A stretch of DNA of 64,000 nt, from positions 1-64,000 of the forward strand of contig JAPEUD010000063.1 of the NCBI GenBank assembly GCA_026026165.1. Direction: 5' to 3'. The first letter of the stretch is position 1, and every line of letters starts with the position of its first letter. Positions 44,880-64,000 of this stretch are shown here, piece after piece. The notes below the pieces were generated by a model. It ran no database searches, was not told the origin of the DNA, and saw nothing but the letters and a program-made list of their open reading frames with translations. The position numbers were made by a program, and so were the translations under genes. The DNA comes from Sarea resinae (lineage: Eukaryota).

Positions 44880-46566
44880 GGCTGAGATCTGAACCGGGCC
44901 AAAGAAGATTGATGCGGAATATGAGGCGTTGTGATCCTTGATTGCTTTACAGATGATATTGTTCGTCCCACTTCAACGATAAGATCTGTGCGCTCTTGGC
45001 ATGCGAAAGCGCCTGTATGAACTCTTGGTGGCTCGAGAAGAGAGCTACGGGCTAGGAGAAATGACAGAATGGTAGTCCGTGTTCGGGCCGAGCGGAGCCG
45101 GAGGGATCTAGTCCTTGTACTCTGTACTTAGACACGTACATCTGATAGAGCTTCAAGGAATGTACGCTGTACCTGAGAGCATGATCGGTCTCAGTTTGGA
45201 GATATGTTTACTCCGTATTCTCCTCGTACTGTATATCGATCCTACCTATATATTGATATTATGTATCTCAGAAAGGAGATTCAACAAGCAGAGACACACG
45301 CCGCCTGGAACTGTAATCGAAAGAAAAACATCGCATGAGATGAGACTGTTCAGAGATCCAACAGACTATCAGACATAAGCCCTCTGCCGTGGCCGTGAAA
45401 GCCGTTTCTTAGGTTCTCGCGGATTCTCAGATTCTTTCTTAGGTCGTGGATACGGCTCTCCGAACAGTCCTGAAGAGCTGCCTAGTTGACTGCCTACCCG
45501 AGGTAAGTCTACCTCGTAGTATCCTCTTCTGTCTCCACGAGGCCATGGCCATCCTGAATGCATTCTTGATCTGCCTTCCATCCAGCTCCCGTCCCCTTGA
45601 CAATAATGCCTCAGTGCGGTTCAGAAGTAGTATGGAAGCTGGGTTATACGGATAGCTCCTCCAAATATCCTGTGACGGCCGTAAAGATTTACTACTGGCC
45701 CTCGCAGTTGTTCGGATGGGTCCTTGATCTTCGTGTCATCACCACTTCTGGATACAACGCCGCTCTCTCTGTAGGAGGAAACGAGACTTGATGGGACTCG
45801 GTCGGCAGGCCGAGTCCTGATCTCCACTTACCCTTGAACCCGAGTAGCACTTTACGGAAACTGTTGGTGAATCTCGGTCTGGTCATTCGCTTAGACACAG
45901 CCATGCTGGTCTATCGCGATCTTGCAGGTATCGATGGGCATGGCCACTTTGCCTGTTGGCATCATTTCCGCTACAGTCTAGGGAGAGAGGCTGACTGAAC
46001 AGTGCTGAAGTTCTACCATTTTCTTTTTTTGAGTTCGAGGATGGGAACACTGCGTCGGAGCTCAGACCTCCTCTGTTCATGATATTCGTTGGTAGCATGG
46101 GCCACTACCTTCAAAGGATAGCTCACAGCGGGTCAGTACTGGTTGAAGACTCTTGCACCTGGGAGGTGCTGTCAACGCGCGAGATTGTCCTTTCAAAACA
46201 GCGTTACGGGCAGCAGCTTGCAAAGGAAACGAAAGGATTATGAGACCCGAGAAATGACGCCAATCTAAGCATTTAAGGCCGCCAATACATCAAAGCAATC
46301 TCAGCCATAGCCTAGGTATTCAGGAGAATGGGAGGAGGAAACGATTTTATTCAACAAGCGCTTGAGATTGACCCTAACGTAAGCAATGACTTATGGGATG
46401 ACTCCCTGGCAACTTGCCGCACGAATAGGCCCGGAGGCGTCTTTTGACGATCTCAAGCCTGCGCGAGCGGATCTCCATGTTATGGTTCAGAGTGTTGCCA
46501 CTGTTCTATACTATGCAACGCTGAACAAGCTGTTCACAATTCTCACAAGCCAGGTTCAGTGCTGCC

Positions 46567-46614
46567 AATGGTCCAAATGGTCCACGGGTCTTGGACCAGA
46601 CCATTTGGACCATT
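46567..46614. repeat. perfect 16-bp inverted repeat built from 9-bp units
   Basis: AATGGTCCAAATGGTC (46567-46582) and GACCATTTGGACCATT (46599-46614), 16-nt spacer. Confidence 0.85.
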
Positions 46615-47368
46615 TAGACCATTGGACCACCAGATCATCGACAGCACTGGCCAGGTTGAGCTATTAAGCTCTTGCTCGACCGAACTGACTACCGTCAATC
46701 ATACTGATATGTACGGTGTTAGACCGCTCCACCCTACTGCAAAACACGGAACATATCAAGGGCCAGTTCGGCTCTCGAGCGTGTGGAGGTCAACATTATT
46801 GACGACTACAGAAAATCAGTTCTAGACTCGGTATCTACGAGCATGACAACTGATTCAGAAGCGATTATCAAGCTGGTTTCCCAGAACTTGCTCGATCTCT
46901 CTATCAAAATTGGCAATGACCTGAAGGCCTTTCACTACGCGCTCTACAATACCAGAATCGCGGCCATGAAAGTCGTGTAGGGATAGACGGTCTGATAACC
47001 TCTGGCTCGCTGGTGTGGTAGGAAGCCTTTGGTCATGCTTTCCTCGGGTCAGGGTGCTGACCCAGATCTGATCGATCAATATTATTGAAAGCCCGTGGAT
47101 CTGGCGCGACGACAGGATGTGCAGTAGCTGTTTGAGAAGTTCTGCTTAGGATCTGGTGGCTGCGCTTTATCCTTGGAGCCCGCGTTATGCTGTGAGACCT
47201 CTGCTAGGCGTTCTATTGCAATGACGCGCTGGCAAATGTTTCACAGCAAATCAACATCGTTACAAAAGCTTGAAAAACACATATTCGGCAATCGGGGACA
47301 TGGTTGTTAAAGACATCTTATTTGTACGGAATTTATGGATAAAAAGAGGCCTAGTCCTGAAGAAAAGC

Positions 47369-49030
47369 TCATATCAAAGATAAACGCTTGAGTATCTCTC
47401 GGACGGATCTAGTCATTCTTTTCACGCTTCTCTTTCCGATCGCAATCTCCTTGTTTACCATCTCTACTACTGAGTCCGATGATGCCGAAGCTATGACAGA
47501 TGCATTGTCTAGATGTTCTCTGTTGCAACCTCGGAATGAAGAGAATGAAGATGTCAAAGGGTGCATTGCTCTTTCAATATCTTCCAGGGACTGCTGGACT
47601 AGCTGCAACAAGATATTGATCTGCGAGGCCAAGGACAAGCTTGTCGAGAAGCAGCCGATCGAGATTCCTGGAAGTGTACCCAGTTCATTGACTGGATCAG
47701 GCGAGCTCAGTAGACAGCTTTCCAGATATGACACGAATGCTTTGAAGATAGGCAGTAGTCGAAGATAGCAAGCCATGACCGACAGAAGAGTGGCGCTGTC
47801 TGGCAGCTCGGCATTGGACTTGTAACAGGAGCATGTTGTTCCGGGACAGTCGGAAGATGAAGATGAGGGAGAGGAAGTTGTTAAACTTGACTCGGATGAG
47901 GCATTGAGGGGCAGTTGGAGTGAGTCGATGTCGTCTCGATGAGACTGTTCGTTTGGTGTGGGCACCGGAGGATTGAACAAGTTCGTTCGAGGTTGCTCGA
48001 GGTTGCAGCCGCCATCGATATGCTTCTTCCCGGCCGATAATTGCTTCGCGATCTCTACGAGTGTGCGCGCTGCTCGAAAAGCCTCATCAATCTTAAGCAT
48101 CTTGCAACGATCCTCACGAGAATATGAGGGAGCAGCCGGCGAATTGTTTGTGCAAGAATGACGCTGGGCAGCTTGCTGAGATGGCGCCAGGGAATCTAGT
48201 GGGTCGGAAGATTCTGCGCACTGAATTGCTCTGAGGTGCTTGTACAGATTCAAATCAAGATCAAAGAGCCGTTTGAGACAATCCTCCATTCTGTCTCCCG
48301 AAGATGCTGATCGCGGCGATTGGCCGGTATCCATTGGATCGGGCGTTGGATCGGACGTTGCTTCCCCGCCGGATGCTCGCACATTGTCCTGGATGGAGGG
48401 GCCTTCCCTTCCTCTGATGGGGGCATATGATACTGCTGGATCCACAGATTGCAGAGAGAACAGATTGCTAGGGTCCGTGGAGCCCTCCTCAGGTGTTATA
48501 CCCAAATGATTCTGCCACTCTGTGACGACGTTCATATATTGTGGGGCTGTTGCATTGCCTGGCCGATCCAACATTTCCGTTGAGAAGTCTAGTGGCATCT
48601 CGAGCTTTGAGTAAGGCTGCGAGAGATAGTCTGTCAATGCGGTATTATCGGTGACGAACGTCATTTCCGGACCGAATGGGCTAAGGACCGAACCTGCGGT
48701 CGAGTCTCTGGTTTCTGATGACATTGCCCTTTCTTGCCGTCGTCGACTTTCGCTGTTTCCCGACAAACTCTCTGCTGCGGGTGTTCGCCGTCTCGAACCT
48801 GATGGTGTCGATGCCGATGCCCTGGATTTCCGTCCCTGCCTTGAGCCCGATTTCTCACTGGGTCTACCTACGGGTCCTGACGGGCTGTAATTGCATTTCC
48901 TGTGAGCTTTGAAGCACCGAACGCAAGTATTGTCGTCAATAGCCTCCAGTCTTTGGTGACACTTGAGCTTCTGGGAGTGACATCGGTCACACGCCTGCCT
49001 GGTCCGTGGCCTCTCGATAGAGGCCTCCAT
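47369..49030 (-). CDS. Zn(II)2Cys6 transcription factor, likely cluster-specific regulator
   Basis: MEASIERPRTRQACDRCHSQKLKC..CVRCFKAHRKCNYS binuclear cluster, long Ser-rich linker, helical C-terminus (LLSVMACYLRLL) of the kind seen in secondary-metabolite regulators. Intronless. First ATG at 49030. Confidence 0.88.
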   Translation of the reverse strand: MEASIERPRTRQACDRCHSQKLKCHQRLEAIDDNTCVRCFKAHRKCNYSPSGPVGRPSEKSGSRQGRKSRASASTPSGSRRRTPAAESLSGNSESRRRQERAMSSETRDSTAGSVLSPFGPEMTFVTDNTALTDYLSQPYSKLEMPLDFSTEMLDRPGNATAPQYMNVVTEWQNHLGITPEEGSTDPSNLFSLQSVDPAVSYAPIRGREGPSIQDNVRASGGEATSDPTPDPMDTGQSPRSASSGDRMEDCLKRLFDLDLNLYKHLRAIQCAESSDPLDSLAPSQQAAQRHSCTNNSPAAPSYSREDRCKMLKIDEAFRAARTLVEIAKQLSAGKKHIDGGCNLEQPRTNLFNPPVPTPNEQSHRDDIDSLQLPLNASSESSLTTSSPSSSSSDCPGTTCSCYKSNAELPDSATLLSVMACYLRLLPIFKAFVSYLESCLLSSPDPVNELGTLPGISIGCFSTSLSLASQINILLQLVQQSLEDIERAMHPLTSSFSSFRGCNREHLDNASVIASASSDSVVEMVNKEIAIGKRSVKRMTRSVREILKRLSLI

Positions 49031-50175
49031 GAGTATGTGGATGTGCAGGAGATTGACAGGGAACTGATCACGGAAGCTCGAACAGTTGATTCTATCCTTC
49101 TGGGTCAAAATCTCCTGCCCTCTGTTTGCGTATCAATGAAGCATCGATAAGCAATGGAGATTTATCACCGGTTTTGACAGCTTCCAATCGAGGCAAAGAG
49201 AAAGCGACAATACATAGAAAGACAGTCATTGTTCACAACAGACGCTATTTCCCAAAGACTGCTAGTTAAGGTAACTGGACTTGCACGAAGTACTAACGCG
49301 CTTGGCAGTATGGCTCTGCCAACGTTCCAACATGATCATTCCAGGACAGGAGGAGAAAGTCCAACGCGGTGAGGTTCCGCCCGTAAGCTGGATGGGACAA
49401 TGTGGCTATGAAACGAGGTGGACATGCCAGGTGAAGAGAACCCACATGGAGAGTACATGCAACGGTGGCGGTGGCTGTCGGAAGTTGGATTTGTCGTAAG
49501 TTCTCGGGAGACCAGGGTTTGAGAAGGAACTGCCAAAAAGGGGCGAAGTATGTAAAAAGGTTGCCTATGACTACTAATGAGGGCCGTGTTCGCGAGTGTC
49601 AGGTACTTCGTAGTAGGTGATCGAGATGGCTCTTCGGATTAAGGTGTACTTTTCCCAGGCCGTATATCATTTGCCCTCTTGCCAGCCTTGTTGCGTGGGC
49701 CTAATGGCGACCAGGGGACTTTTGTGTTGTGTTGGATCCGACGCGAGACATGGCGGAGAGGGCGGAGATGCAGCGTACCATGCTCATTAGGGCATGGCGG
49801 AGGACACCATGGATGGTTCAGGGAGGGCCTGGGCAGGGTTCCGCCCGGGAAGGTCACTGCTGTCCAACTCTAAATTGATTTCAGCGGGAGCTAGTGCCTA
49901 GGTCCGGTCAGCACTAAGAGGTGCGAATCCTGCGGAGCATTACTCTAGAGTACGAATACTTGGTCAAATTACGGACTACTCGAGCACTCTACTCTGCTTA
50001 TGATTAGGTGATATCTCTTGGAGTGTTATGGTCGAGTGTTATCCGACAAACCTACCTAGGGGAGGTAACCAACGCGTCCAACGCCGCGGGATTATTCACA
50101 TCGTGTTGGGTGTCTTGGGTTGTTGTGATGATTCCATTATTCGGTTTCTATGACTCTTCTTGCCGCTGCGGCTGC

Positions 50176-51651
50176 CTACCTGACAGTACCTTCCTTTCGT
50201 TTCGAGAACCTATGGGCATTGATTCGCTCCATCAATGCTCTCACCTGAGCCAAACTCTCCCCGCCAAGGACGACGGATGCGATGCTGTACCTGACGTTCC
50301 CCTCGTTCCCCTCGTTCCCCTCGTTCCCCTCGGTCCCCCCGTGCCCCTCGTCTCCCTCTCGGCCGTGACACCAGCCGCAGATGACGATCCGGCCCGCCTG
50401 ATATTCCTGGTCGAACGCTCTCTCGAACTCCGCCCGCGAGCAGACGAGAGGCAGCGGGTAGAGCACGACGGCGATTGGCAAGCTTCGGCCGAGAGCGAAA
50501 TGACGCTTGAGGAAGCCGAGCGGGTAACTGGCGGGGACCCGCACGTTGAGATCGATGACCAGCTGCGTCTGGTCGGGACTCGTCACCACATCCACCCCCA
50601 CCGGCCCATAGTAGCCTTCCTGATGCAGGACTCGGGCCACTTTGCTCGCCGTGTCCTCGTAATGATCGCGAAGCTGATCTTGACGGCCGTAATCGACGAA
50701 GCTCCCACCCCACAATCCGTGCGCGTCGATGTACTGCTCGGCACACGCGATGAAAATGGGGCGCCCTGCCCTGGTGATGAAGAGGGATAGGCTCACGACC
50801 GGCCCCTGGATCAGCTCCTGCACCACGAGACTGGCGGGGCGCAAGTGTGCATTGGACTCGCCTAGCGCTTGGATCATCCTCTTCACCTCTGGCGTCAGCA
50901 CCTCGACGGCTTCCTGCCGCTCGCTATCCTTCTCAATCACGAATACGCCTTGCCCGCCATTGGACTGCGGCAGCTTGATGACGAACGGGGCCGCCCGATC
51001 GACGATCGGCCCCATCATATGCGCCACTGCCGCTTCCACGAGGCCGTCGTCGTGGACCTGATCCAACCCAATGTCGGGATCAATCACCTGCGATGGAGGG
51101 GACGGTAGTGTCGAGGCGACTAGCCCGACCTTTGATAGCAAGCGGTAATGCGATTCGGGAGCGAGCAAGAGAGGAAGCTGGGCAAGACAGTCCATGGGGA
51201 ACATGACGGCAACTGGGGTCTCGGGCGTCGTCACCTTGATGTCGCTCGGACTGACCACAAACGTGACATTCGGCTGTTGGGTTTTCTCCAGTTGGCCGAA
51301 GACTTGCAGAGCATCGACTTGATGGATCCTCCTCCTCCTTGGATCTCTGGCCTCCTCGACTTCAATCTCGTATTCGGCCCAATCAGGATCGAAGAGCACC
51401 ACCGACATCTTGCCGGCCATGAAGGCATGAGTCTGCGCGCCAGTGCCCAAGCAGATTCGAGCCATCAGGTCGCGCCCAACGGGGATGGATCGTGGAGCTT
51501 GAGAGACAAATTTGGTCGATAATGGCAGAGAAGACGTCAACTGTACTACGGCCGAAGGTATGGCCATCGCTAGGATTGGCTCTGGGCCATCCGGATTATC
51601 CACCGCATAGAGCTCTTGAAGGGTCGTGTCCAACTCCACCGTTGGCGCCAT
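50176..51651 (-). CDS. ATP-grasp ligase (FsqD-like fungal family)
   Basis: ATP-grasp motifs in the expected order: HYRLLSK, PFVIKLPQSNGGQGVFVI, LVVQELIQG, GYYGPVGVDV, VIDLNVR. Start MAPTVELDTTL at 51651. Confidence 0.82.
   Translation of the reverse strand: MAPTVELDTTLQELYAVDNPDGPEPILAMAIPSAVVQLTSSLPLSTKFVSQAPRSIPVGRDLMARICLGTGAQTHAFMAGKMSVVLFDPDWAEYEIEVEEARDPRRRRIHQVDALQVFGQLEKTQQPNVTFVVSPSDIKVTTPETPVAVMFPMDCLAQLPLLLAPESHYRLLSKVGLVASTLPSPPSQVIDPDIGLDQVHDDGLVEAAVAHMMGPIVDRAAPFVIKLPQSNGGQGVFVIEKDSERQEAVEVLTPEVKRMIQALGESNAHLRPASLVVQELIQGPVVSLSLFITRAGRPIFIACAEQYIDAHGLWGGSFVDYGRQDQLRDHYEDTASKVARVLHQEGYYGPVGVDVVTSPDQTQLVIDLNVRVPASYPLGFLKRHFALGRSLPIAVVLYPLPLVCSRAEFERAFDQEYQAGRIVICGWCHGREGDEGHGGTEGNEGNEGNEGNVRYSIASVVLGGESLAQVRALMERINAHRFSKRKEGTVR
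50295..50350. repeat. coding 9-bp tandem repeat (EGN)n in the ATP-grasp gene
   Basis: (cgttcccct)n on the + strand; the protein reads EGHGGTEGNEGNEGNEGN. Confidence 0.9.
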
Positions 51652-52253
51652 CCTTTCGACTGCGCGGGAGATGGACGGAGTCCAACTCGGATTTGACAAG
51701 AAGAGTGCAAAAGAAGTCGAAGTCTCTCCCAGTCGAATTGGCATCAATATCCTCAGGTGTAAAGGAAACATTTATATCTCTACAGCGCGATCAGGAGCGG
51801 CACGGCATTGAAAAGATGCCCAATTCCCGAATCTTCAGCTGGAGATTCACCGTAAATCATTGCTTCTTTGAATTGATGCTCTTGCAGTTTTCGGCTTCGG
51901 TGCATTCCTTCATAAATTCTGCTGATCACTTAGTACAAAATAGCGGATCCGTCCCTGCCCGACAACGGCAGTCGATAATGTTGCTATGTGCCAGATACTA
52001 GATGCTTGGCAGATAAAGAAAAAATCGCCGACGTGTCGGTATTAGAGTATGGTTTTGAAGATCCATTCCGGACAATTCGTCACAGTCGATGGCGGTTATC
52101 ACCAGGTCACCCCCAGGTCACCACCTGGCTCCTTCGAGACGTACTTCGTATTCTGTCAAATCTACCTTACAGTAGTTCTCTTTTCATCAACATCATCGTC
52201 ATCATTATCATAATTCTCGCGGCTGTTGTTGGCTGGTGCCTCAACAAACAGTC

Positions 52254-53537
52254 ATGGCGGCAGTAGCACATCAGACCAAGCAAGTGCAGGGAATGGATAG
52301 TCTAGATGACCATATCCAAGAACGGATGAACGATGTTTCCATGCGAGGCGCTGGCTTCTACAACTCCAATTCCGCTCTTCAAGCAGCAGCAGCTACGAGA
52401 TGCCTGCCGCTCCTCGACATCAACCCTGGTAGCGGTCTTGCTGAAGACAAGCAAAGCCACCAGCTGTTCACCGTCGTCGAGTATGGCTCAGCACAGGGGA
52501 GCAATTCGTACGTGTGAAACAACCTCACTGGAAAGAAATCATGGTGTTGGGCTAATTAATTAATACACACGAAAAGTGTTGCTCCTATGAAGCGCATCCT
52601 CGATAGTATGCCTCACCCATGCCCTGAAAACCATGGTCGCGGTCAAGATCGATTGCAAGTCCAACTAGTCTTCAGTGATCGACCACAGAATGACTTCGCA
52701 TCCCTTGCAAAGACTATATCCGAGATCCCATGGATGGAGCCTAAAGCCGGCGACACCGACATATCAGAGGCGACACCATCGGTGTTCCCCACGATGGTGG
52801 CCCGTAACTTCTACGAGCGTGTGATGCCGACTCAGTCGGTCGACGTGGGTTTCTCTTTCGCCTCGCTTCATCATCTCAACCAGCTGCCTCCACCGGCTCC
52901 CCCAGCCACTTCTCTAGAGGGTGAGCAAGAGAGAATGGTCGTTCGCAAAGCGCGATTCCGCGAACAAGCACGTCACGACCTCGAGCATTTTCTAAGTCTG
53001 CGTGCTGAAGAACTCAAACCCGGTGCTCAATTGGTACTGTCATTCTCGAGTGCGGCGAGCTCTGGAGCGCCCAATTTTGCGCCCTGGGCGTTGTCCCTGT
53101 GGATGTCGATCTTGGATATGGTGGGTGCTGGCCGGATTCCGGCACTTGTATCGCAAAAATTTGATGTACCAACGTACGATCGGTCATTGAACGATGTGAG
53201 GCAAACTCTCGATGCAGTTCGGCATTTTTGGAGTGTGGAGCAAATTTTTGAGGACGAGATCGAGCATCCTGCTGTTGAGATGCTGTTGGGGACGAAGGCG
53301 GATGACGACGCAATGCGAGCAGAGTACGCAGATGTCACTGTTCGATGGTTGATGGCTGTTGTTTCCGGTTACTTTATAAAAGCTTTGAGACAGGGCTTCG
53401 GTGAGCCACTCGACCCTGAACAGGAGGCGAATCTATTACGAGACTTGACGGACAGGGTCCGGGCCCGTATCCTGAGAGACCACTCCAACGAGAGATTGAC
53501 TTGCTGGTTTATATATATCAAGCTGATTAGGATCTAA
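52254..53537 (+). CDS. SAM-dependent carboxyl methyltransferase (SABATH/Methyltransf_7 family; FUS9-like)
   Basis: Exons 52254-52507 and 52577-53537. VSMRGAGFYNSNSALQ, VVEYGSAQGSNS, VFSDRPQNDF, NFYERVMP, GFSFASLHHL, DLEHFLSLRAEELKPGAQLVL. Confidence 0.88.
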
Positions 53538-53622: not shown

Positions 53623-55554
53623 TCATTTATACGAAATGACAGCCTTGGGCTGGCAAAACTGCAGAAGTCCAGGAAGACCATATTCCACCCCAATCCCACT
53701 CTGCTTATGTCCCGAAAAAGGAACCTCAGGATAAGGCCTCGAGGGTCCGTTGACATAAACGCTTCCAACATCCACCTTATCGGCGATCTCCTGGGCCACC
53801 TTTGTATCTGCTGACCATATACTGGCGCTCAGTCCTGTCTGGGTGCTATTCACAGCCTCTATTGCTTCCTCTATAGTCGAAAAAGGATTGCACGGAACCA
53901 TGGGGCCTATGTCGCACGGTGCGTTAGATTGAGAAAAAACAGAACAGCATCAAAGAGGGTGAACGTACCGAATTGCTCTTCCGCCACAATGCGAGACTCT
54001 GACGGCGGATTATCGAGGATCTGAGGCGGGATGAAAAATCCCTCTCGAAGAGCCTCGGTTGTTAAATCTCCCGATTCGGACCCACCGAGCGCGAAAGTGT
54101 ATCCATTCTCCTTGCAGTCTTTGATCAAATCTTGAAGCTTGTCGAACTGCATTGAATTCTGGATTGGGCCAATCATGGCAGGGCGAGGATCATTCGGCGC
54201 GGGTAAAGAGCCAACCCGAAGGGTCTTGGTAAACTCGACCAATGCACGGAGGAAGTCGCTGTAGATCGTGTGATGAATATATATTCTTTTGATAGCGATG
54301 CAGGTCTGACCAGCGTTGAACCAGACCCCCATGGCTACTTGCGGCGCGACTTTGTTGATATCGGCGTCTGAAAGGACGATGGCAGCGTCATTACCGCCCC
54401 TAGAATGACATATGTCAGCGACGACCAACACGAAAACCCAGCTGCTAGCCAGTAAGGCAATCTGGATCGCGGAACATACAATTCCAAGGTCAGCTTCTTC
54501 AGTGTCTTTGCTCCGCTTTGCATTATCTTCTTCCCAGTCTCGGTCGAGCCAGTGAAGGAGATCTTTTGGATCCCAGGATGTTCGACCAAGAGAGGCCCCA
54601 ATTTTTCATCACCACCTAATGCTTGAACAACACCAGGAGGGAAGATCTGCTGTGCCAACTCTATTAATTTGAGACCGGTATACGGTGTGAAAGGCCTGTT
54701 CAGGAACACTTGATTAATTCTTGCGCTCCCAGAATTATGCTGGTTGCTCACGATGGTTTCAAAATTGCACAGTTGCCAGCGGCTAAGGCGGGGGCAATCT
54801 TTCCGATTGCTGTTGACATGTTAGTAGCTCGCTGACCAATTCGACTACCATGGGAGGATCATATCACCGAGCATCAGCGGGACTGGAATTTTGACACGAT
54901 CAGCTCGGATTCTTTTGGGCTGGGGTCAATCAATTTCTCCTACAATTCCAAGGACATATCGCTGCGACGACCCCAAGGGGTTCGTAGCGTGTTGTAGCCA
55001 CTTTCTCATCGTCCTCGATTCTCTCGACTGGCCAGGTCACCGAAGCTGGCGTTGATCAGGGCCGGTGATCTATCTCAATTGCAAGAAGCTCTTACCGGGC
55101 TGTCGAATCCATTGCACGGCCCATTGGACCTCGATGGCAGCAAATTGTGTCTGGATCAAAGTCAACACATTGGAAGCCGCAAGTGGAGTCTTGCTCTCTG
55201 AATCGAGCTCTGAGAATTATAACTCTAGCTAAAGGGCCTACATACGGATCTACCAGTCTCGGCGACCAACAGTTCAGTAAGTTGTGACGAGTGCGCCAGA
55301 TACAGTTTTGCAAAGTCTTCCAATAGACCCGTGCGAGTGGCATATTCCGTTGCGGACCAGGCTGGGAAGGCCTCTTGAGCTGCTGCGACAGCATCGTCCA
55401 CGTCCTGGCTTGTTGCCACAGGCGCTTCCCAGAGAGTCTTCTTGTTCACAGGATTAGTACCGGAATATGTTCGTGGGGCTCCACGAAGCTGGCCGCCGAT
55501 AACGTTATGGAATGTATCAAAAGACAGCAAAGGCGATTCTGAAGTTGAGTCCAT
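53623..55554 (-). CDS. aldehyde dehydrogenase (FUS7-like), multi-exon
   Basis: FDTFHNVIGG, RYEPLGVVAAICPWN|FPLML (15-nt micro-exon), LKPS|PFTP, KISFTGSTETGKK, catalytic Glu LTLEL|GGND, catalytic Cys NAGQTC, EEQFG, PFSGHKQSGIG. Confidence 0.93.
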
Positions 55555-55911: not shown

Positions 55912-57285
55912 ATGATCCTCGAAACGCTGCTACTGTTGCTGCCCTTGGCATGCAAGGGCACGACTGCAGCTGCAGCGACAGATGATGCGCAATCTGGATC
56001 TGCAGCAGTCGTCGCGGTTCCCATGAAGCAATCTTCGTATGGGCCCGTATTCAATCTAACTGTCGGCACCCCTCCGCAACCTCTCACCGTGCTGAGCGAC
56101 TGGACATGGATGTCGTTCTTCACACGTTCGGCCTACTGCGACGGCAGCTACAATGTCAGCAATTGCATTCCGGCAGGGCAAGGCTGGTTCGACGATCACG
56201 CCTCGTCGACCTTCCAGAATTCGACGTCGTATGCGCCGACCGGGTGGGCGAACACGGCCTTCTTGCCGGGCGAAGACTTCAATGTCACCTATGCTAGCGA
56301 CGTTGTTTGTCTCGAAGCTTCCTCTGACGCGGCTGCCGGTGACAGCAGTCAGTCCTGCACGCCGGCCACGGTCTTCCAGCTCTCCGACTTCGACGTTGCC
56401 CTCACTTCAGCCTTGCCCTTCGCCGGCATCTTCGGCCTCTCGCCCGTCCTCCCCGGCTCCAATGCGTCTTTCTACCCGGCCTCCTACCAGGCCTACCTCA
56501 ACGACACCCTCGCCGGTGCCCTTGTGGGATACCACTCCTGTGCGAATCTCGCCTCCAGCTCGTCGTGTGCCGGCGGCGACATGCTCACCGTCTTCGGCGG
56601 GACGGCCAATAGCTCCGTCTTCGACCCCAGCTCGGTCGCCTATCTGGACGTCGAAACCGAGCCCTGCATCACCATCTCGGCGCCATTGGACTTTCGGCCC
56701 GCGCGGGACAATTTCTGGTCGCTGCGGTGGACGGGCTTCTGGATCGGCGACCAAGCCGTCGACTTGAACATCTCCTCTTCTTCCTCCTCTTCTTCCAAGT
56801 CAACATCCTCCTCATCGCCCGCCTGCACCGACTCGTCGCCCCTCGCCGTCCTAGACGAAGGCTCCGAGGGCGTCGGCGCGCCCGTGCCCAGCAGCGCCTA
56901 CGACGCACTCGTCGCCGCCGCCAACGCCACCGTCGCCGCCAACCAGTCCGTCGCTCTCAATACAGGCAACCAGACCTACTACACGGTGCCCTGCGCCGCC
57001 ATATCCACGCTACCCACGCTGACGTACGAGCTCGGCGCCGCGCAGAACTACACCATCGCGCCCGCCCAGTACGTCGTCTCTGTACCACCAACCACCACCA
57101 CCACCACCACCGACGGGACCGCCCCGACGAACACCTGCTATCTCAACGCCAAGACCTGGGCCCTGGGTCCCGACGCCCCCGCCGCCTTCTTCGGCTCCAC
57201 CTTCTTCGGCAACTTGTACGTGGTCTTTGATTTCGAGGGCCTCCGGGTCGGCCTCGCGCCTTTGAATCAGCAGCTCTTCTCGTAG
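55912..57285 (+). CDS. secreted pepsin-like (peptidase A1) protein with non-canonical active-site motifs (FUS4-like)
   Basis: Signal peptide MILETLLLLLPLACKG; NLTVGTPPQPLTVLSDWTW; GIFGLSP; AVLDEGSEG; YTVPC..LPTLTYEL; FFGSTFFGNLYVVFDFEGLRVGLA. Confidence 0.85.
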   Translation: MILETLLLLLPLACKGTTAAAATDDAQSGSAAVVAVPMKQSSYGPVFNLTVGTPPQPLTVLSDWTWMSFFTRSAYCDGSYNVSNCIPAGQGWFDDHASSTFQNSTSYAPTGWANTAFLPGEDFNVTYASDVVCLEASSDAAAGDSSQSCTPATVFQLSDFDVALTSALPFAGIFGLSPVLPGSNASFYPASYQAYLNDTLAGALVGYHSCANLASSSSCAGGDMLTVFGGTANSSVFDPSSVAYLDVETEPCITISAPLDFRPARDNFWSLRWTGFWIGDQAVDLNISSSSSSSSKSTSSSSPACTDSSPLAVLDEGSEGVGAPVPSSAYDALVAAANATVAANQSVALNTGNQTYYTVPCAAISTLPTLTYELGAAQNYTIAPAQYVVSVPPTTTTTTTDGTAPTNTCYLNAKTWALGPDAPAAFFGSTFFGNLYVVFDFEGLRVGLAPLNQQLFS

Positions 57286-57875: not shown

Positions 57876-60800
57876 CTATTCAACATCCGACAGCAAAGAA
57901 GGCAAAACGGCAGCCGGGCCTTGCGCCTCCAACGTCTCGCGCACCACGGCCTCCAACGCGCCCGCGAGCCCGCACTCCCGGGCCCGCGCCATCCAGTCGT
58001 CCACCGCGAGCGTCTGCAACGAAGAGCGGCGGCGGCCGTCTTGCTGCTGCTGGTGGCGGCTCTCGAGGTACGCCTTTAGTTGCTCGGCCGGGATCTTGGC
58101 GGATGCGGCGGCGCAGTGGTGGAGGAAGCGTAGGCGGGGGGGATGTTCTGCGGGAGTAGTAGTAGTAGAGTCGGAGGTATTATGAGAGCTACTAGAGGTG
58201 GCAGAGAGCAGCAGCTGGTCGCGAACGCGTCGCGCGACGTCCGAGACGCGCACGAAGTCGAACTTGCCCTTCCAATGGCGCGTGTCCGGCACGGCGCCCA
58301 TCTCGAGCGAGAGCGCGATGATGTTGGCCATGAGGTCGGTCTCGGGCACGGCGGCGTCGGCGCTACCGCTGGCGGCCACGACGCTCGACGGCCGATGGAT
58401 CGTGCACGGCAGGCGCAGCTGGCGGTCCTCGGCACAGCGCTGCAGGAAGCGCTCGCTGGCCCATTTGGCCGCCACGTAGCCGTCGGACCCGTCGCGCGGC
58501 GGTGGGTGGTCCATGACGGAGACCTCGGCCAGGCTGTCGGCCGAGCCGACCAGGCGCGCCACCCCGCCCGTCGAGATGAAATGGAACGGGATGCGCCGCG
58601 GCAGCGCGAGATGCACGAGCGTCTTGGTCGACTCGAAATTCGCTTTGCGCAGCGAGCCGTACGATTTCAGGAACGAGACGTCCGCGCCGTTGTGGACGAT
58701 CCTGTCGACGCGGCCGGAGAGGGCCTGAAAGTCGGCGGGAGAGAGGCCAAGAAGAGGAGCGCTTAGGTCGCCGGCATATGGCACGATCTTGTCGGACTTG
58801 ACTTTCAGCCGATCTGAGAGGTTCGAGGACTTGTCTGGCCGGATGGCGACGCAGTGGACCCGGGAGATGTTGGGGTCCGCGACCAGAGATTGGAGAAGCG
58901 CGGACCCGACGAAGCCCGTGGCCCCTGTGAGGAGCACCTCTATATTTTCGTTGGACACTGGCTTTTCGGTCGAGCCTCTCGCTGCGAGTAATCGCTCTTC
59001 CCGTCCAATCGCCGTCTCGTCCGTCCAATCAATTTCCTTGATTTCCTGAGTGCCGCCCGATCGTAACGCGATGCGAGATGCCATCGAACCCAGCGTGCTC
59101 GTCTGGAAGAGCTCGAGCAGTGGGATCTTAGCACCCAGATCCCTGCGGACCAGGGCTTGAAGTTTGACAAGAAGCAACGAGTTTCCCCCTACTTCAAAAA
59201 AATCGGTATTGCTGTCCAGACCCAATGACGAAGTGGCCGCTTCTGGAAGACAGTCTTTCCAAATCTTGGCCAGTTTGTGTTCCAGCTCTGATCCACCTGT
59301 GATGGAGTGGCCATCTTCAACCTTGGGGAGAGGGATCGCGTTCAACGCCCGCCTATCCATCTTCCCGTTGCTATTCCGAGGTAAGTGTTTGACGGGTATC
59401 ATCATCGCCGGGATCATGTAGAGGGGTAGAGGGAGATTGCATTGCAGATCTTTCAGATAGGGCCGAATGTCTTCGACCGACTGACCAGCAGCCGGGACTA
59501 CAAAAGCAACGAGGAAACGTCGATCGCCTTCATCGTCCAGCTGCCCTCGAAGGGAGATGGCCGCGTCGGCTAATTTCCTCTCGGAAGCAAGAAGAATATT
59601 GTTAGCAATATCATCAAGCTCGATTCGGAAGCCTCGCAGTTTGATTTGACTGTCACCATCCATACGACCAAGGTACGCGAAATCGCCGGTTGTGAGAAGC
59701 CTTCCTTTGTCTCCAGTGCGGTACATTCGATTCCAGCCCCTAGCACTCGCAATGTTGTCAGGTGTAACGAATGGGTCTGAAAGGAATTTAAGCTGGGTGA
59801 GCTCTGGGTTGTTAAGGTAACCTAAGGCCACCCCAGCACCAGCGATGACGATCTCTCCAGGGAAGCCAATTGGGAGTGGAGCCAGATCCTTGTCAACAAT
59901 ATAGGTTCTATAATTCGGCAACGTCGAACCGATGGTAGGGTTCTGGATGATCATGCATGCAGGATCGCTCGTGTTGATGTTTGAGATGGAACTTGATACC
60001 GAGATCTCCGTTGGCCCATAACGATTGAGAAGATGCAGATCGGGCATTCCAAGAAGGTGAAATTCGTGAATCAAATGCGAGGGCAGAGCTTCGCCACCGA
60101 CAAAGGCAAATCGCCATGCCGTGTAGTGTCGTAGGATATCAGATCCATATCGCAACAAAGCAACGTATTCCGATGGGGTGGCATAGGTGTAGGTCACCTT
60201 TTCTGACAGCATCAACTTTGCTAGCTCAATCGGATCGCCCCTGGTTTGACGCGATGCAACAACGAGTGTGCCCCCAGATGTGACAGCTTGGAGCATCTGA
60301 TCAAGGGAGACATCAAAGCCCAATGAGCTCTGTTGCATTATGACTTCCTTACCAATGCCATACCGCTTCTTGACTCCTTGGATCTGGTTGATCAGGTTGA
60401 TATGGGTCAGAACAATACCTTTCGGGGTTCCAGTCGAGCCACTGGTATAGATGGCACAGGCGGGAGATGTGGCAACAGCCATGTTGACCACAGGAGAATG
60501 CGGAAATTCTTGTTCGTTGAAATCGCCAAAGTTGAGGATCCGGCTTTTCGATATGTTGAGCCGTCTGGTGCTTTCCTCGGTGGCCTGATGGCAAATTATA
60601 GCAGCCGGCTGACAATCCTCGACTATCAACTGAAGTCGCTCGGTAGGATTTTGGAGATCAAGTGGGACATATATGGCCCCAATTCGCTGGATAGCCAGCA
60701 GATAGCAAACCGAGTTGATTGTGGGCTCGCAATGGACAGCAACGAATTCCGTGGGTTTGACATTAGCCTTCAGGAGAGCAGAGGCAATGATGTGAATACG

Positions 60801-63800
60801 CCTGATCAGTTGACTGAAGGTCAAAGAATGTCCGGACTCATCCTTCACCGCAATATCTCCAGCTGCATCTAATTCGACTATGTCAACTATGTCCGGAATT
60901 GTAATATACTTGTTGACATCTAATTCATCCCCTTTGCCTAATTGGAGAGCTTTCTGAATGTCTGATTGGTCGAAGTACGACAGCCTTTCGATAGGAAGTG
61001 TCTGCCCATCAGCTTGAGTGACCGAGCCTAGGAGGTGAACGTAAGTTTTGAGGAGAAGAGACAAGTCCTCGTCAGTATAAAGATAAGCCTGTGATTTCAA
61101 CGAGAGCGATGTGGAACCGTTGGCTAATTCCTCGACATCAAAGGCTAGATCGTAGGGATTTTGTGCATCTTCTGAGTGAATCAATGTCGCTGTAGTATCT
61201 CCTATTGCCGCTTTCTGAAAAGTGGCGACTCTGTAATTCATGGTGACCTGGAACAGGGGACTATGAGTTGTTGACCGAGGTACCATCAATTCATCAAGCA
61301 GCACATCGAATGGTAAACGGGAGTGGTCTAATGCGCTCAACGCTTGAACTCGTGCGGCTCTCACGATGTCTTGGTATGAGTCTCCAGCTTGCAATCGAAA
61401 CCGCAAAGGAAGTAAATTGACGAAGAACCCGACCGTATCCAAGAAATCGGAATCGGTTCTATTCGCATCTATGATTCCAATAGAAACGTCTTCGAGGTTC
61501 AAGAATTTGAACAAAAGTATCTGTAGGATTGCAAGATGTGCGTGAAACAGGGTGACTCCCTGGGCACGGCTGATTGCCCTCAAAGAAGAGACAAACTTTG
61601 GTTCAATGATGGTTCGGGCAGCTCGCATGTTGTAGGATGTTAACGGCTTCCGAGACTTCACTTGACAGAAGTCAAAGAGAGGCAGCGTCGGAGGGAGGTC
61701 GGGATATTGGGACTTCCAATATGAGAGATCTGACGCCATGCTGGCATCTTCGACCAACCACGCTCGCTGTTTTGTTGCAAATTCTGTATACGGATGTGAC
61801 AGATTCTCGAGGTGTTGACCGGAGTAAGCTCTTGCTAGATCCTTGACGAAGATCTGGGCGCTGAATCCATCGAAGGCGATATGATGGAATCCGAGAATTA
61901 ACGTGTGCTTTTCGGAAGATTGGGTGAACAAGGTAGCAATCATCGTATCTCCATGTTCCAAGTCATGTATGTGCCGACGGACTTCATGGAACTTTGCCAT
62001 AACTTCGTGACCGTGCTCACTGCGAAGATGTTTCTTTTCCAGCGTAAAGGGGGAACTCGACCGCACTCCTTGCATTGCAAGGGACGTTTTCGAGTCAAGA
62101 AAGAAACTAGACCTCAACAGTTGATGCCTATTGATTACAGCTTTGAAGGCAGCCTCGAAAGCGTCCACACGCAAAGGGCCATCGATCTGATAAGCCATGG
62201 TCACGTTGTATGCGGTGGGATCCTCCAGGTACACCCTCAGGAACCAAAGTCGTTCCTGAGCAAAAGACATCCTCTCGACGTGCTGATAGGATTTGGTCGA
62301 GAGTAAGGAGTCAAGCTCTACCAAACGAGCTTGACCGTTGGTTGGAAGCTCTTTGAGATTGGGCGTGCTATAATCTCCGCTCCTAGTGGAAATACTTCCT
62401 CTTTCCGAATTATTGTCGTCGAAGAGTGATCCTGTATGAGACATGACGGAGCTGTCAAGCTCGCTTGGAGGAGTATCTCGATTGTCGTTTTCGGATTGAT
62501 CAGCTTCCTCGACAGATATCTCTGGCACGGCAGACGGTTTGTCCGTCGTGATTTCAGCCTAAATGTTAATCAGCGTCAGCGCGGTGGGCGGAAGAATTCA
62601 TATATTGTTTCAGACCTTTGGGGCATTGGCAACCTCAGCTGCCAAAGCTTCCTGTTTCGTTCTTCTCGCCGCCGCCTCACGACATAATTCAGTGACAGAG
62701 GCCCCTCCGAGTATTTTGAGCACGGAGACGTCAACATCCGTCTCTTTCAGGAACCAAGAACGAATCTCAACCGCCATTAGAGAATCTACACCGAGATTGA
62801 GAAGCGGCTGTGCTCTCTCTATATTGGCCGCAGGAACTTGTAGGATGCGCTCGAGTTTACCTACGAACGCATCTTCAATATATTGAATGGTTTCTTCGAG
62901 TGTTTGTGCGTCCTTTAGTTGCTGCTTGAGCGACACCAATGCTGTGGAAGATAGATTTTGGCCGACTGACTCCTCGTGGAAAACGTAGTGCGAGAATCTG
63001 GGATTCTCATGCCAGAAGGCTTTATCACCGTCATCTTCAGTTTTCATGATTCGGTGCAGTCCAGTGATAACCTCTGGCTGCTGTCCGGAGTCAGGTCGAC
63101 CAGCCAGGATAGCATTTGCGAACATGCCATGGAAAAGCGATTCAGAGATGGGCATATAGTTGTATTTTCGCAGGGTCGACTCGTAAACCCCCGTCTGAGA
63201 TACGTAGCCAACACCAAGAACCATTCCAATATCGAGCACTGAAGCTGGTAGTCCATTCTGTCGGCGCCATGCGGCAAAGCTTGTCATAAACAAGTTGGCG
63301 GCTCCATAATTTGATTGCCCACGGTTACCGACGACGCTGGCCAGAGACGAGAACAGAATGAAGAAGTCAAGGTCTTTTTTAGGCAGACACTCGTGGAGAT
63401 TCTTGGTCCCGTCCACTTTAGGCTTCAAGACCTGAAGGAAATCTTGAATAGACAAGTCACCAAACAGCTTGTCTGATAGGACCATGGCCGCGTTAGCAAC
63501 CCCTGCGACTGGTGGTAGTGTACGAGAGATTTCGTCGCACACACGGATCAGCGCCGTTCTGTCGGAAACATCAAGTCCATAAACTTTGATGATTCCGCCC
63601 ATCTCGCGAAGTTCCTCAAGCCAAATTGAATCGACTGTACTGGCATTTCTGCTGGTGAGAACCAAGTACCTAGCGCCATTGCGAAGCATATATCTCGTTA
63701 GAGATTTTCCAAGGCCACCTGTGCAACCGGAGAGGAAATATGTCCTGTCATTCCTGAACAATTCGCTTGATATTATCGGTTTGACGATTGTTGGAACATT

Positions 63801-64000
63801 CCCAGCCTTTGTGAAATCAACCACGTAATGATACGGTTTCGGAGAAAGATCTGCAGCCAACTCCTGAAGTGTGATCTTGCTTGCCGTACACTTTTGTCGT
63901 CGGAGGAAGGCTGTTTCCGAGATAAGGTGAGCCTGAGATAGCTTGTCACGAAGCGAGAGTGTTTCCAAGGCCGAAGAAATCTTGGCTCCCTTATCGAATA
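57876..64000 (-). CDS. hybrid PKS-NRPS, 3' part (KR-ACP-C-A-T-R); 5' part lies beyond the window
   Basis: KR (FLSGCTGGLG, GQSNYGAAN), ACP (LGVDSL), in-phase intron 62559-62615, C (MSFAQERLWFL, HHIAFDG), A (IYTSGSTGTPKG, FDVS, YGPTE, YRTGD, QIKLRGFRIEL, NGKMDR), T (FFEVGGNSL), R (LLTGATGFVG, HNGA, GYVAAKW). The frame stays open to base 64000. Confidence 0.97.

Follow-up and report, generated by a model that had tools for sequence, protein, structure and literature searches.

The first 64 kb of contig C104 of Sarea resinae (GenBank assembly GCA_026026165.1, contig JAPEUD010000063.1, positions 1 to 64,000), referred to below as the window, carry an ATP-grasp ligase gene (P0001) within a fusarin-type PKS-NRPS (polyketide synthase and nonribosomal peptide synthetase hybrid) cluster, which extends beyond the window end, its FUS8 orthologue included. 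The cluster genes are ordered as a Zn2Cys6 regulator (-), the ATP-grasp ligase (-), a carboxyl methyltransferase (+), an aldehyde dehydrogenase (-), an aspartic-protease-like gene (+), the PKS-NRPS (-), an alpha/beta hydrolase (+), a glutathione S-transferase (GST)/eEF1B-gamma-like gene (+), a cytochrome P450 (-), and a major facilitator superfamily (MFS) transporter (+). A conserved GTPase gene flanks them on the left, and NmrA-like and homeodomain genes, read by eye, on the right. Compared with the fus gene set (PMC10967133, available text), this content amounts to counterparts of FUS1, 2, 3, 4, 6, 7, 8, and 9 plus the regulator, without FUS5. The ligase gene, located between the regulator and the FUS9 counterpart, is the only one foreign to the fusarin set and the sole copy found in the genome. 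We tentatively propose that its product amidates a carboxylate of the pathway, most likely the one made by FUS8, as a branch beside methylation. The features are listed in Table 1.

Table 1. Coordinates of the cluster genes and associated features (window positions; contig positions where indicated)
Feature	Position	Strand	Evidence or remark
Zn2Cys6 transcription factor, probable cluster regulator	47369..49030	-	Pfam Zn_clus E 9e-4, slightly below cut-off
GTCCAA-NN-CGG word, ~330 bp upstream of regulator ATG	49359..49369	+	word search
ATP-grasp ligase (P0001), single exon, 491 aa	50176..51651	-	Pfam ATP-grasp_3 E 4e-11, over cut-off
9-bp tandem repeat, 7.2 copies, inside ligase gene	50295..50361	.	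codes for in-frame Gly/Asn/Glu insertion
602-bp divergent intergenic region, ligase/methyltransferase	51652..52253	.	GTCCAA-NN-CGG word 51680-51690; TATA-like element 51771
SABATH-type carboxyl methyltransferase, FUS9 counterpart, 404 aa	52254..53537	+	intron 52508-52576; Pfam Methyltransf_7 E 1e-32
Aldehyde dehydrogenase with several introns (splicing partly checked); family and position as for FUS7	53623..55554	-	Pfam Aldedh on 4 exon frames
Aspartic-protease-like protein, FUS4-like	55912..57285	+	Pfam Asp E 7e-13
NRPS half (C-A-T-R) of PKS-NRPS	57876..62558	-	domain search; A domain aligned to PsoA
PKS half, terminal part (KR-ACP)	62610..64000	-	gene start at contig 70124 (KS-AT-DH-MT-KR-ACP)
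Alpha/beta hydrolase, beyond window	contig 70563-71879	+	Abhydrolase Pfam matches
GST/eEF1B-gamma-like, beyond window	from contig 72393	+	
P450, FUS8-type, beyond window	contig 73358-75030	-	
MFS transporter, beyond window	from contig 75372	+	

By sequence comparison, we assign the cluster to the fusarin clade (II-A) of PKS-NRPS clusters, the placement of the hybrid resting on the neighbors of the P450. The hybrid has the domain order KS-AT-DH-MT-KR-ACP-C-A-T-R (Pfam) expected for clade II-A and adjoins a FUS2-type alpha/beta hydrolase. In P0277, a Trichoderma protein annotated as a fusion with a FUS8-like P450, the hydrolase portion is 55% identical to it. No trans-enoyl reductase was found among the open reading frames (ORFs) at 47 to 80 kb of the contig (the cluster genes judged by Pfam, the flank by eye). 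In these respects, and in its FUS3 GST/eEF1B-gamma-like, FUS4 protease-like, FUS6 MFS, FUS7 aldehyde dehydrogenase, FUS8 P450, and FUS9 methyltransferase counterparts, the cluster resembles the fusarin C cluster of Fusarium fujikuroi (fus1 to fus9; also NG-391 and lucilactaene; clade II-A, PMC7421883), from which it differs by the added ligase and regulator genes and the missing FUS5.

The P450, whose existence the preliminary description of the locus had predicted as probable, was indeed found past the window end. Proteins that carry the names FUS8, fus8, luc2, or fusarin C cluster P450 showed 49 to 52% identity to it, and members of a subgroup found in Thermoascus, Aspergillus, Monascus, and Penicillium showed 62 to 72%; in a tree of 41 chosen sequences it grouped with both at support 1.0. 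Four of its close relatives sit three to four accession numbers from PKS-NRPSs assigned to the fusarin clade II-A (Minami et al. 2020, PMC7421883, supplement file 4). We found no description of a product for its subgroup (Thermoascus, Aspergillus section Fumigati, Monascus, and P. digitatum).

Once its 69-bp intron was spliced out, the methyltransferase was identical, letter for letter, to P0075, a database protein recorded for Sarea resinae, and it matched Methyltransf_7 as well as solved SABATH enzymes. Consistent with the earlier comparison to FUS9, it matched, over its full length and with 37% identity, the FUS9 portion of P0263, a record from Fusarium globosum; it was also 49% identical to a Thermoascus methyltransferase three accessions from its FUS8-like P450 and 52% identical to a paralogue on another contig of S. 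resinae (C56). Judged by these matches, it is an ordinary FUS9 counterpart, and its substrate is therefore most simply the polyene acid. This conservation makes it very improbable that the ligase adds an amino acid whose own carboxyl is then methylated, the weaker of the two branches offered in the preliminary description, even though the two genes have a common promoter region and SABATH enzymes accept varied acids. That both enzyme classes act on carboxylates was correctly noted. The aldehyde dehydrogenase, on the other hand, is probably not needed to make the carboxylate, contrary to the earlier assumption: for fusarin C in Fusarium, Fus1, Fus2, Fus8, and Fus9 suffice, and fus3 to fus7, including the aldehyde dehydrogenase gene fus7, are largely uninvolved (PMC10967133, available text).

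The structure model of the ligase (predicted local distance difference test score, 90.3) was closest among solved structures to LdmS, the L-aspartate-L-methionine ligase of Staphylococcus aureus (PDB 7r8p and 7r8q; Z 29.9, root mean square deviation 3.4, 370 residues aligned, 16% identity), followed by PGM1-type enzymes and BesA (Z 20 to 22) and a BacD-type L-amino-acid ligase (Z 16.1). In LdmS, K136, K173, D288, D301, N303, and R305 are reported as the nucleotide, metal, and carboxylate residues (PMC9486568, available text). The last five align with K226, D354, D367, N369, and R371 of the ligase, and K174 was paired with K136 by position only; each of the six is found in 123 to 126 of the 127 full-length homologues and in P0001. 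The two proteins also have in common the D-x-N-x-R motif, with Asp replacing the usual Glu, and an equivalent of Gln244. They differ in that the residues holding L-Asp in LdmS (Y252, N255, and N307) are replaced by W314, S317, and P373, and in that the ligase has a longer N-loop and is fungal and cluster linked; its score against the NCBIfam LdmS model (NF047900) is 20.7 bits, below the cut-off of 475. As modeled, the enzyme would work like LdmS, yet it is not LdmS. A further residue, R65, occurs in all 23 near relatives and in 21 of the remaining 104; mapped by eye, it is probably the equivalent of LdmS Arg47, to which the incoming amino acid binds by its carboxylate (PMC9486568, available text), and a profile search for this mapping gave a very weak N-terminal alignment that ended two residues short.

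A decayed gene was ruled out by the kept residues and by the deviation of P0001 at 10 of 102 conserved columns, which lies within the range of its peers (3 to 27). Nor was accelerated change after recruitment seen, the root-to-tip distance being 0.815 against 0.47 to 1.30 in the near clade. The 9-bp repeat is in frame and inserts about 15 residues (436 to 450) into a low-confidence loop of the model; none of the 31 aligned relatives carries it. From the fold and the conserved residues, we predict that the gene probably encodes an intact ATP-grasp amide ligase.

The PGM1/BesA-type peptide ligases (PDB 3wvq, 8ynd, and 8yi6), which are bacterial and make amide bonds in secondary metabolism, have the same fold and a weak sequence match to the ligase through BesA. 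However, the ligase scores 24.4 for BesA against a cut-off of 750 and has no PreAtp-grasp or PGM1_C Pfam match. Among fungal ATP-grasp enzymes, Cp1B (E-64) was shown in vitro and AnkG (NK13650) in vivo, and the role of FsqD (fumisoquin), which the preliminary description took as an established example, is only proposed, the enzyme having, in the available text of PMC12568646, "not been biochemically characterized." Cp1B and AnkG provide fungal examples of ATP-grasp enzymes that form amides on carboxylates other than those of amino acids. They are described as glutathione-synthetase-like with no Pfam domain, whereas the ligase is LdmS-like with an ATP-grasp_3 match, and by this description they would belong to another group; Cp1B was not among the structural matches listed for the ligase, which is compatible with a distant kinship. 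None of Cp1B, AnkG, and FsqD tailors a PKS-NRPS product.

Since LdmS, BesA, and the PGM1-type enzymes join amino acids, the ligase might instead supply the hybrid with a precursor, making a dipeptide or modified amino acid for the adenylation (A) domain or acting on the second carboxylate of an acidic unit. The A-domain pocket reads D-V-D-Y-F-G-R-V-S-K in our own reading of an alignment to PsoA. Within this domain (59400-60860, - strand), an Arg at position 322 and an Asp at position 239 (PheA numbering via PsoA) were observed, and an amino acid other than homoserine may be loaded. By our reading, the Arg and the extra Asp could suit a charged side chain. However, the pocket may be ordinary for the clade, the L-Asp side-chain residues of LdmS are replaced in the ligase, and none of the close clusters showed a ligase in the data seen. 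We therefore consider precursor supply improbable.

The ligase gene is inside the regulator-to-MFS span. A second fusarin-type cluster remnant was observed in the same genome, at 234.4 to 256.3 kb of C56. There, a regulator paralogue adjoins FUS5/FUS6/FUS9-like genes, indicating that clusters of this type include the regulator; it is between this regulator and FUS9 on C104 that the ligase is located. Besides the regulator paralogue, the remnant holds a gene for a FUS5-like FSH1 hydrolase, which the C104 cluster is without, a small membrane-protein gene, an MFS (68% to the C104 MFS), a FUS9-like methyltransferase, two short-chain dehydrogenases, and decayed FUS3- and FUS4-like pieces; no PKS-NRPS hybrid was found at 220 to 280 kb of C56.

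A single word of nine specified bases, GTCCAA-NN-CGG, was common to at least four of the six cluster intergenic regions. All four of its sites in contig positions 1 to 100000 (49359, 51680, 70344, and 72142) are in cluster intergenic regions, and the genome has 193 sites, one per 132 kb. Of 60 dinucleotide shuffles, 2 produced some such shared word, as did 3 of 60 samples drawn from real sequence outside the cluster (p ~0.03 to 0.05, post hoc). The narrower GTCCAAYYCGG, with one mismatch allowed and in the window only, occurred at chance level (5 seen, 4.5 expected), and the exact word was not found at 240 to 260 kb of C56. The shared word makes a modest case for co-regulation of the ligase with the core genes.

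The ligase and methyltransferase genes are both intact and, as described previously, head to head, with ATGs at 51651 and 52254 and a gap of 602 bp. The cluster has four divergent neighbor pairs (ATP-grasp/methyltransferase, aldehyde dehydrogenase/protease-like, PKS-NRPS/hydrolase, and P450/MFS), so that this layout alone is not unusual here.

The ligase family is widespread in fungi (187 clusters at 50% identity), and no functional study of it was found in the literature. By Pfam, the settings of its homologues are mixed, including transporters (MFS or ABC), an AMP-binding enzyme together with an MpaB-like gene, pyridoxal phosphate (PLP) enzymes with a diaminopimelate (DAP)-epimerase-like gene, a histidine-decarboxylase-like gene, and housekeeping genes; this survey took 59 of 132 flanking ORFs, chosen for length and non-redundancy, from 13 loci. 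In the near-relative clade (support 0.93 by FastTree and 79 by UFBoot), a P450 is directly downstream of the ligase in two lineages (P0038 and P0045, which are annotation fusions in two lichen fungi related to each other, and locus L012), and an ABC transporter is upstream in three (L011, L012, and P0139). The P450 is presumably CYP52-like (the fatty-acid omega-oxidase group), judging from its motifs. These neighbors suggest a family habit of joining amino acids to P450-made acids on hydrophobic chains, such as FUS8 would supply.

The ABC transporter/ligase/P450 group recurs in lichen and other fungi (L012:1-6007, L011:1-4655, P0038, P0045, and P0139), and no core synthase was seen beside it in these short stretches. 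As a candidate N-acyl-amino-acid pathway, this group may be a better lead for the function of the family. It also lends some support to a role outside the cluster, in which the ligase would conjugate amino acids to hydrophobic acids, such as oxidized fatty acids or resin acids, for export or detoxification, and the resin-dwelling lifestyle of S. resinae, whose genus fruits only on resin (PMC7451776, available text), would agree with this. However, the lifestyle is the only link between the ligase and resin acids. An ABC/P450 pair left elsewhere in this genome was not among the top matches to the trio, the best of which are on other contigs or far apart, and we consider this role unlikely.

Other cassettes were observed around homologues. 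At L010:5526-11371, one is head to head with a gene for a PLP enzyme of 993 amino acids that resembles histidine decarboxylase; an MFS is nearby, and the cassette may ligate amines. L018:1-6299 combines a ligase with aminotransferase-like, Cys/Met PLP enzyme, and DAP-epimerase-like genes, and L016:5764-13501 combines one with an AMP-binding enzyme, an MpaB-like gene, and an MFS. A genome-contig scan with the patterns used found no prokaryotic relatives with neighbors.

Going by orthology, the hybrid would release a polyene-amino-acid aldehyde, the FUS2-type hydrolase would close the pyrrolidone, the FUS8-type P450 would turn the side methyl into a carboxylate by oxidation, and the FUS9-type methyltransferase would cap this carboxylate as the methyl ester. 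The LdmS-like ligase, which would have been added in this lineage, is predicted from its fold and residues to phosphorylate a pathway carboxylate with ATP and to convert the acyl phosphate into an amide with an amino acid, D354, D367, and N369 serving as metal ligands and R371 binding the carboxylate. The acyl donor would most likely be the FUS8-made acid, and the amide conjugate would form a branch beside the methyl ester. Ochratoxin A offers a parallel for this chemistry, in which a P450 oxidizes a polyketide methyl to the acid and an amino acid is attached to this acid through an amide by a separate enzyme, although there the amide is made by an NRPS and not by an ATP-grasp ligase. A more specific version, in which the products are fusarin-type amino-acid amides from the FUS8-made carboxylate and the near family members are N-acyl-amino-acid synthetases for P450-made acids, is more doubtful.

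Several observations weigh against amidation of the pathway acid. LdmS takes only small amino acids as the acyl donor, bulky ones not fitting (PMC9486568, available text), and by analogy a polyene acid that is branched and conjugated differs greatly from its substrates. Five of the nine fus genes are dispensable although co-regulated (PMC10967133, available text). No match to any of 12 other cluster queries (E<1e-5) was found at 26 metagenome loci of the ligase family; because only 12 of these reach 9 kb, several come from the same organism group, and identities are 27 to 45%, this co-occurrence test is weak for the nearest relatives. The ligase homologue identified and a FUS8-like gene lie about 880 locus numbers apart in A. 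tanneri (ATNIH1004_001272 and _002150) and about 520 apart in A. fumigatiaffinis (CNMCM8980_004623 and _005143), no ligase was found in the C56 remnant (220 to 280 kb), and support within the near clade is low (UFBoot 33 to 79). As for the promoter word, it was found post hoc and is absent from two of the six regions, both divergent. Its 51680 site is 29 bp from the ligase ATG and downstream of the TATA-like element, which, as read from the sequence, is an odd place for an activator site and does not separate the ligase from the methyltransferase.

It is accordingly nearly as likely that the ligase gene was moved beside FUS9 by rearrangement and, co-regulated or not, has no part in the PKS-NRPS product, the cluster making an ordinary fusarin-like methyl ester. 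The many unrelated settings of the homologues, none of the 26 loci having fusarin genes, the two unlinked Aspergillus cases, and the C56 remnant would all be expected of such a passenger, as would the small donor pocket of LdmS and the dispensable genes common in fus clusters (FUS3 to FUS7 in Fusarium). Less easily explained in this way are the single, intact copy within the regulator-to-MFS span and the promoter region and promoter word that it has in common with the core genes. The idea of the ligase and methyltransferase genes as a conserved pair, in contrast, was ruled out by the neighbors of the methyltransferase relatives, which adjoin FUS8 or an MFS, by the 26 loci, and by the remnant. 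Homologues occurring independently of the cluster had been named in the preliminary description as evidence against a joint role, and at the family level they do so.

Additional features were observed in and around the cluster. The G+C content along the PKS-NRPS gene (contig 57876-70124) rises from about 0.48 in mid-gene to 0.66 in the terminal reductase domain, and that of the protease-like gene is 0.63; in composition, the cluster is a mosaic. Between the GTPase gene and the regulator, about 2.3 kb (45000-47300) are without a long ORF, and a short frame there (45439-45735, - strand) resembles an AAA-type ATPase fragment by eye, with no Pfam match.

With this cluster, a known clade gains a new member, one set apart by its added ligase. 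In agreement with the preliminary description, which knew of no characterized fungal PKS-NRPS pathway tailored in this way, we found no fusarin-type cluster with an ATP-grasp gene in the literature searched, including the available text of PMC11057048; the primary fusarin, lucilactaene, and acurin papers were outside this search. Neither the main text of PMC7421883 nor any of six supplementary files mentions ATP-grasp; that survey targeted known tailoring enzymes and might not list an ATP-grasp gene. No publication on metabolites of Sarea was found in the literature search either.

Should the ligase prove a passenger, the locus would add one more to the fusarin-type clusters. If it amidates the pathway acid, the product would be the first from a fungal PKS-NRPS that we could find with tailoring by a stand-alone ATP-grasp ligase, and the large LdmS-like fungal family would gain its first function. 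According to the available text of PMC12568646, Cp1B is the only ATP-grasp ligase of fungal natural-product biosynthesis shown in vitro. The ligase family of the S. resinae locus is a different one, widespread and unstudied, and because its member here is intact and lies beside an obvious candidate substrate, its function is directly testable. Capping of the fusarin acid is reported to matter for activity (PMC10608775, available text), and fusarin chemistry would be extended by a ligase that forms amides on a bulky polyene acid, which would itself be of use as a biocatalyst for amide formation.

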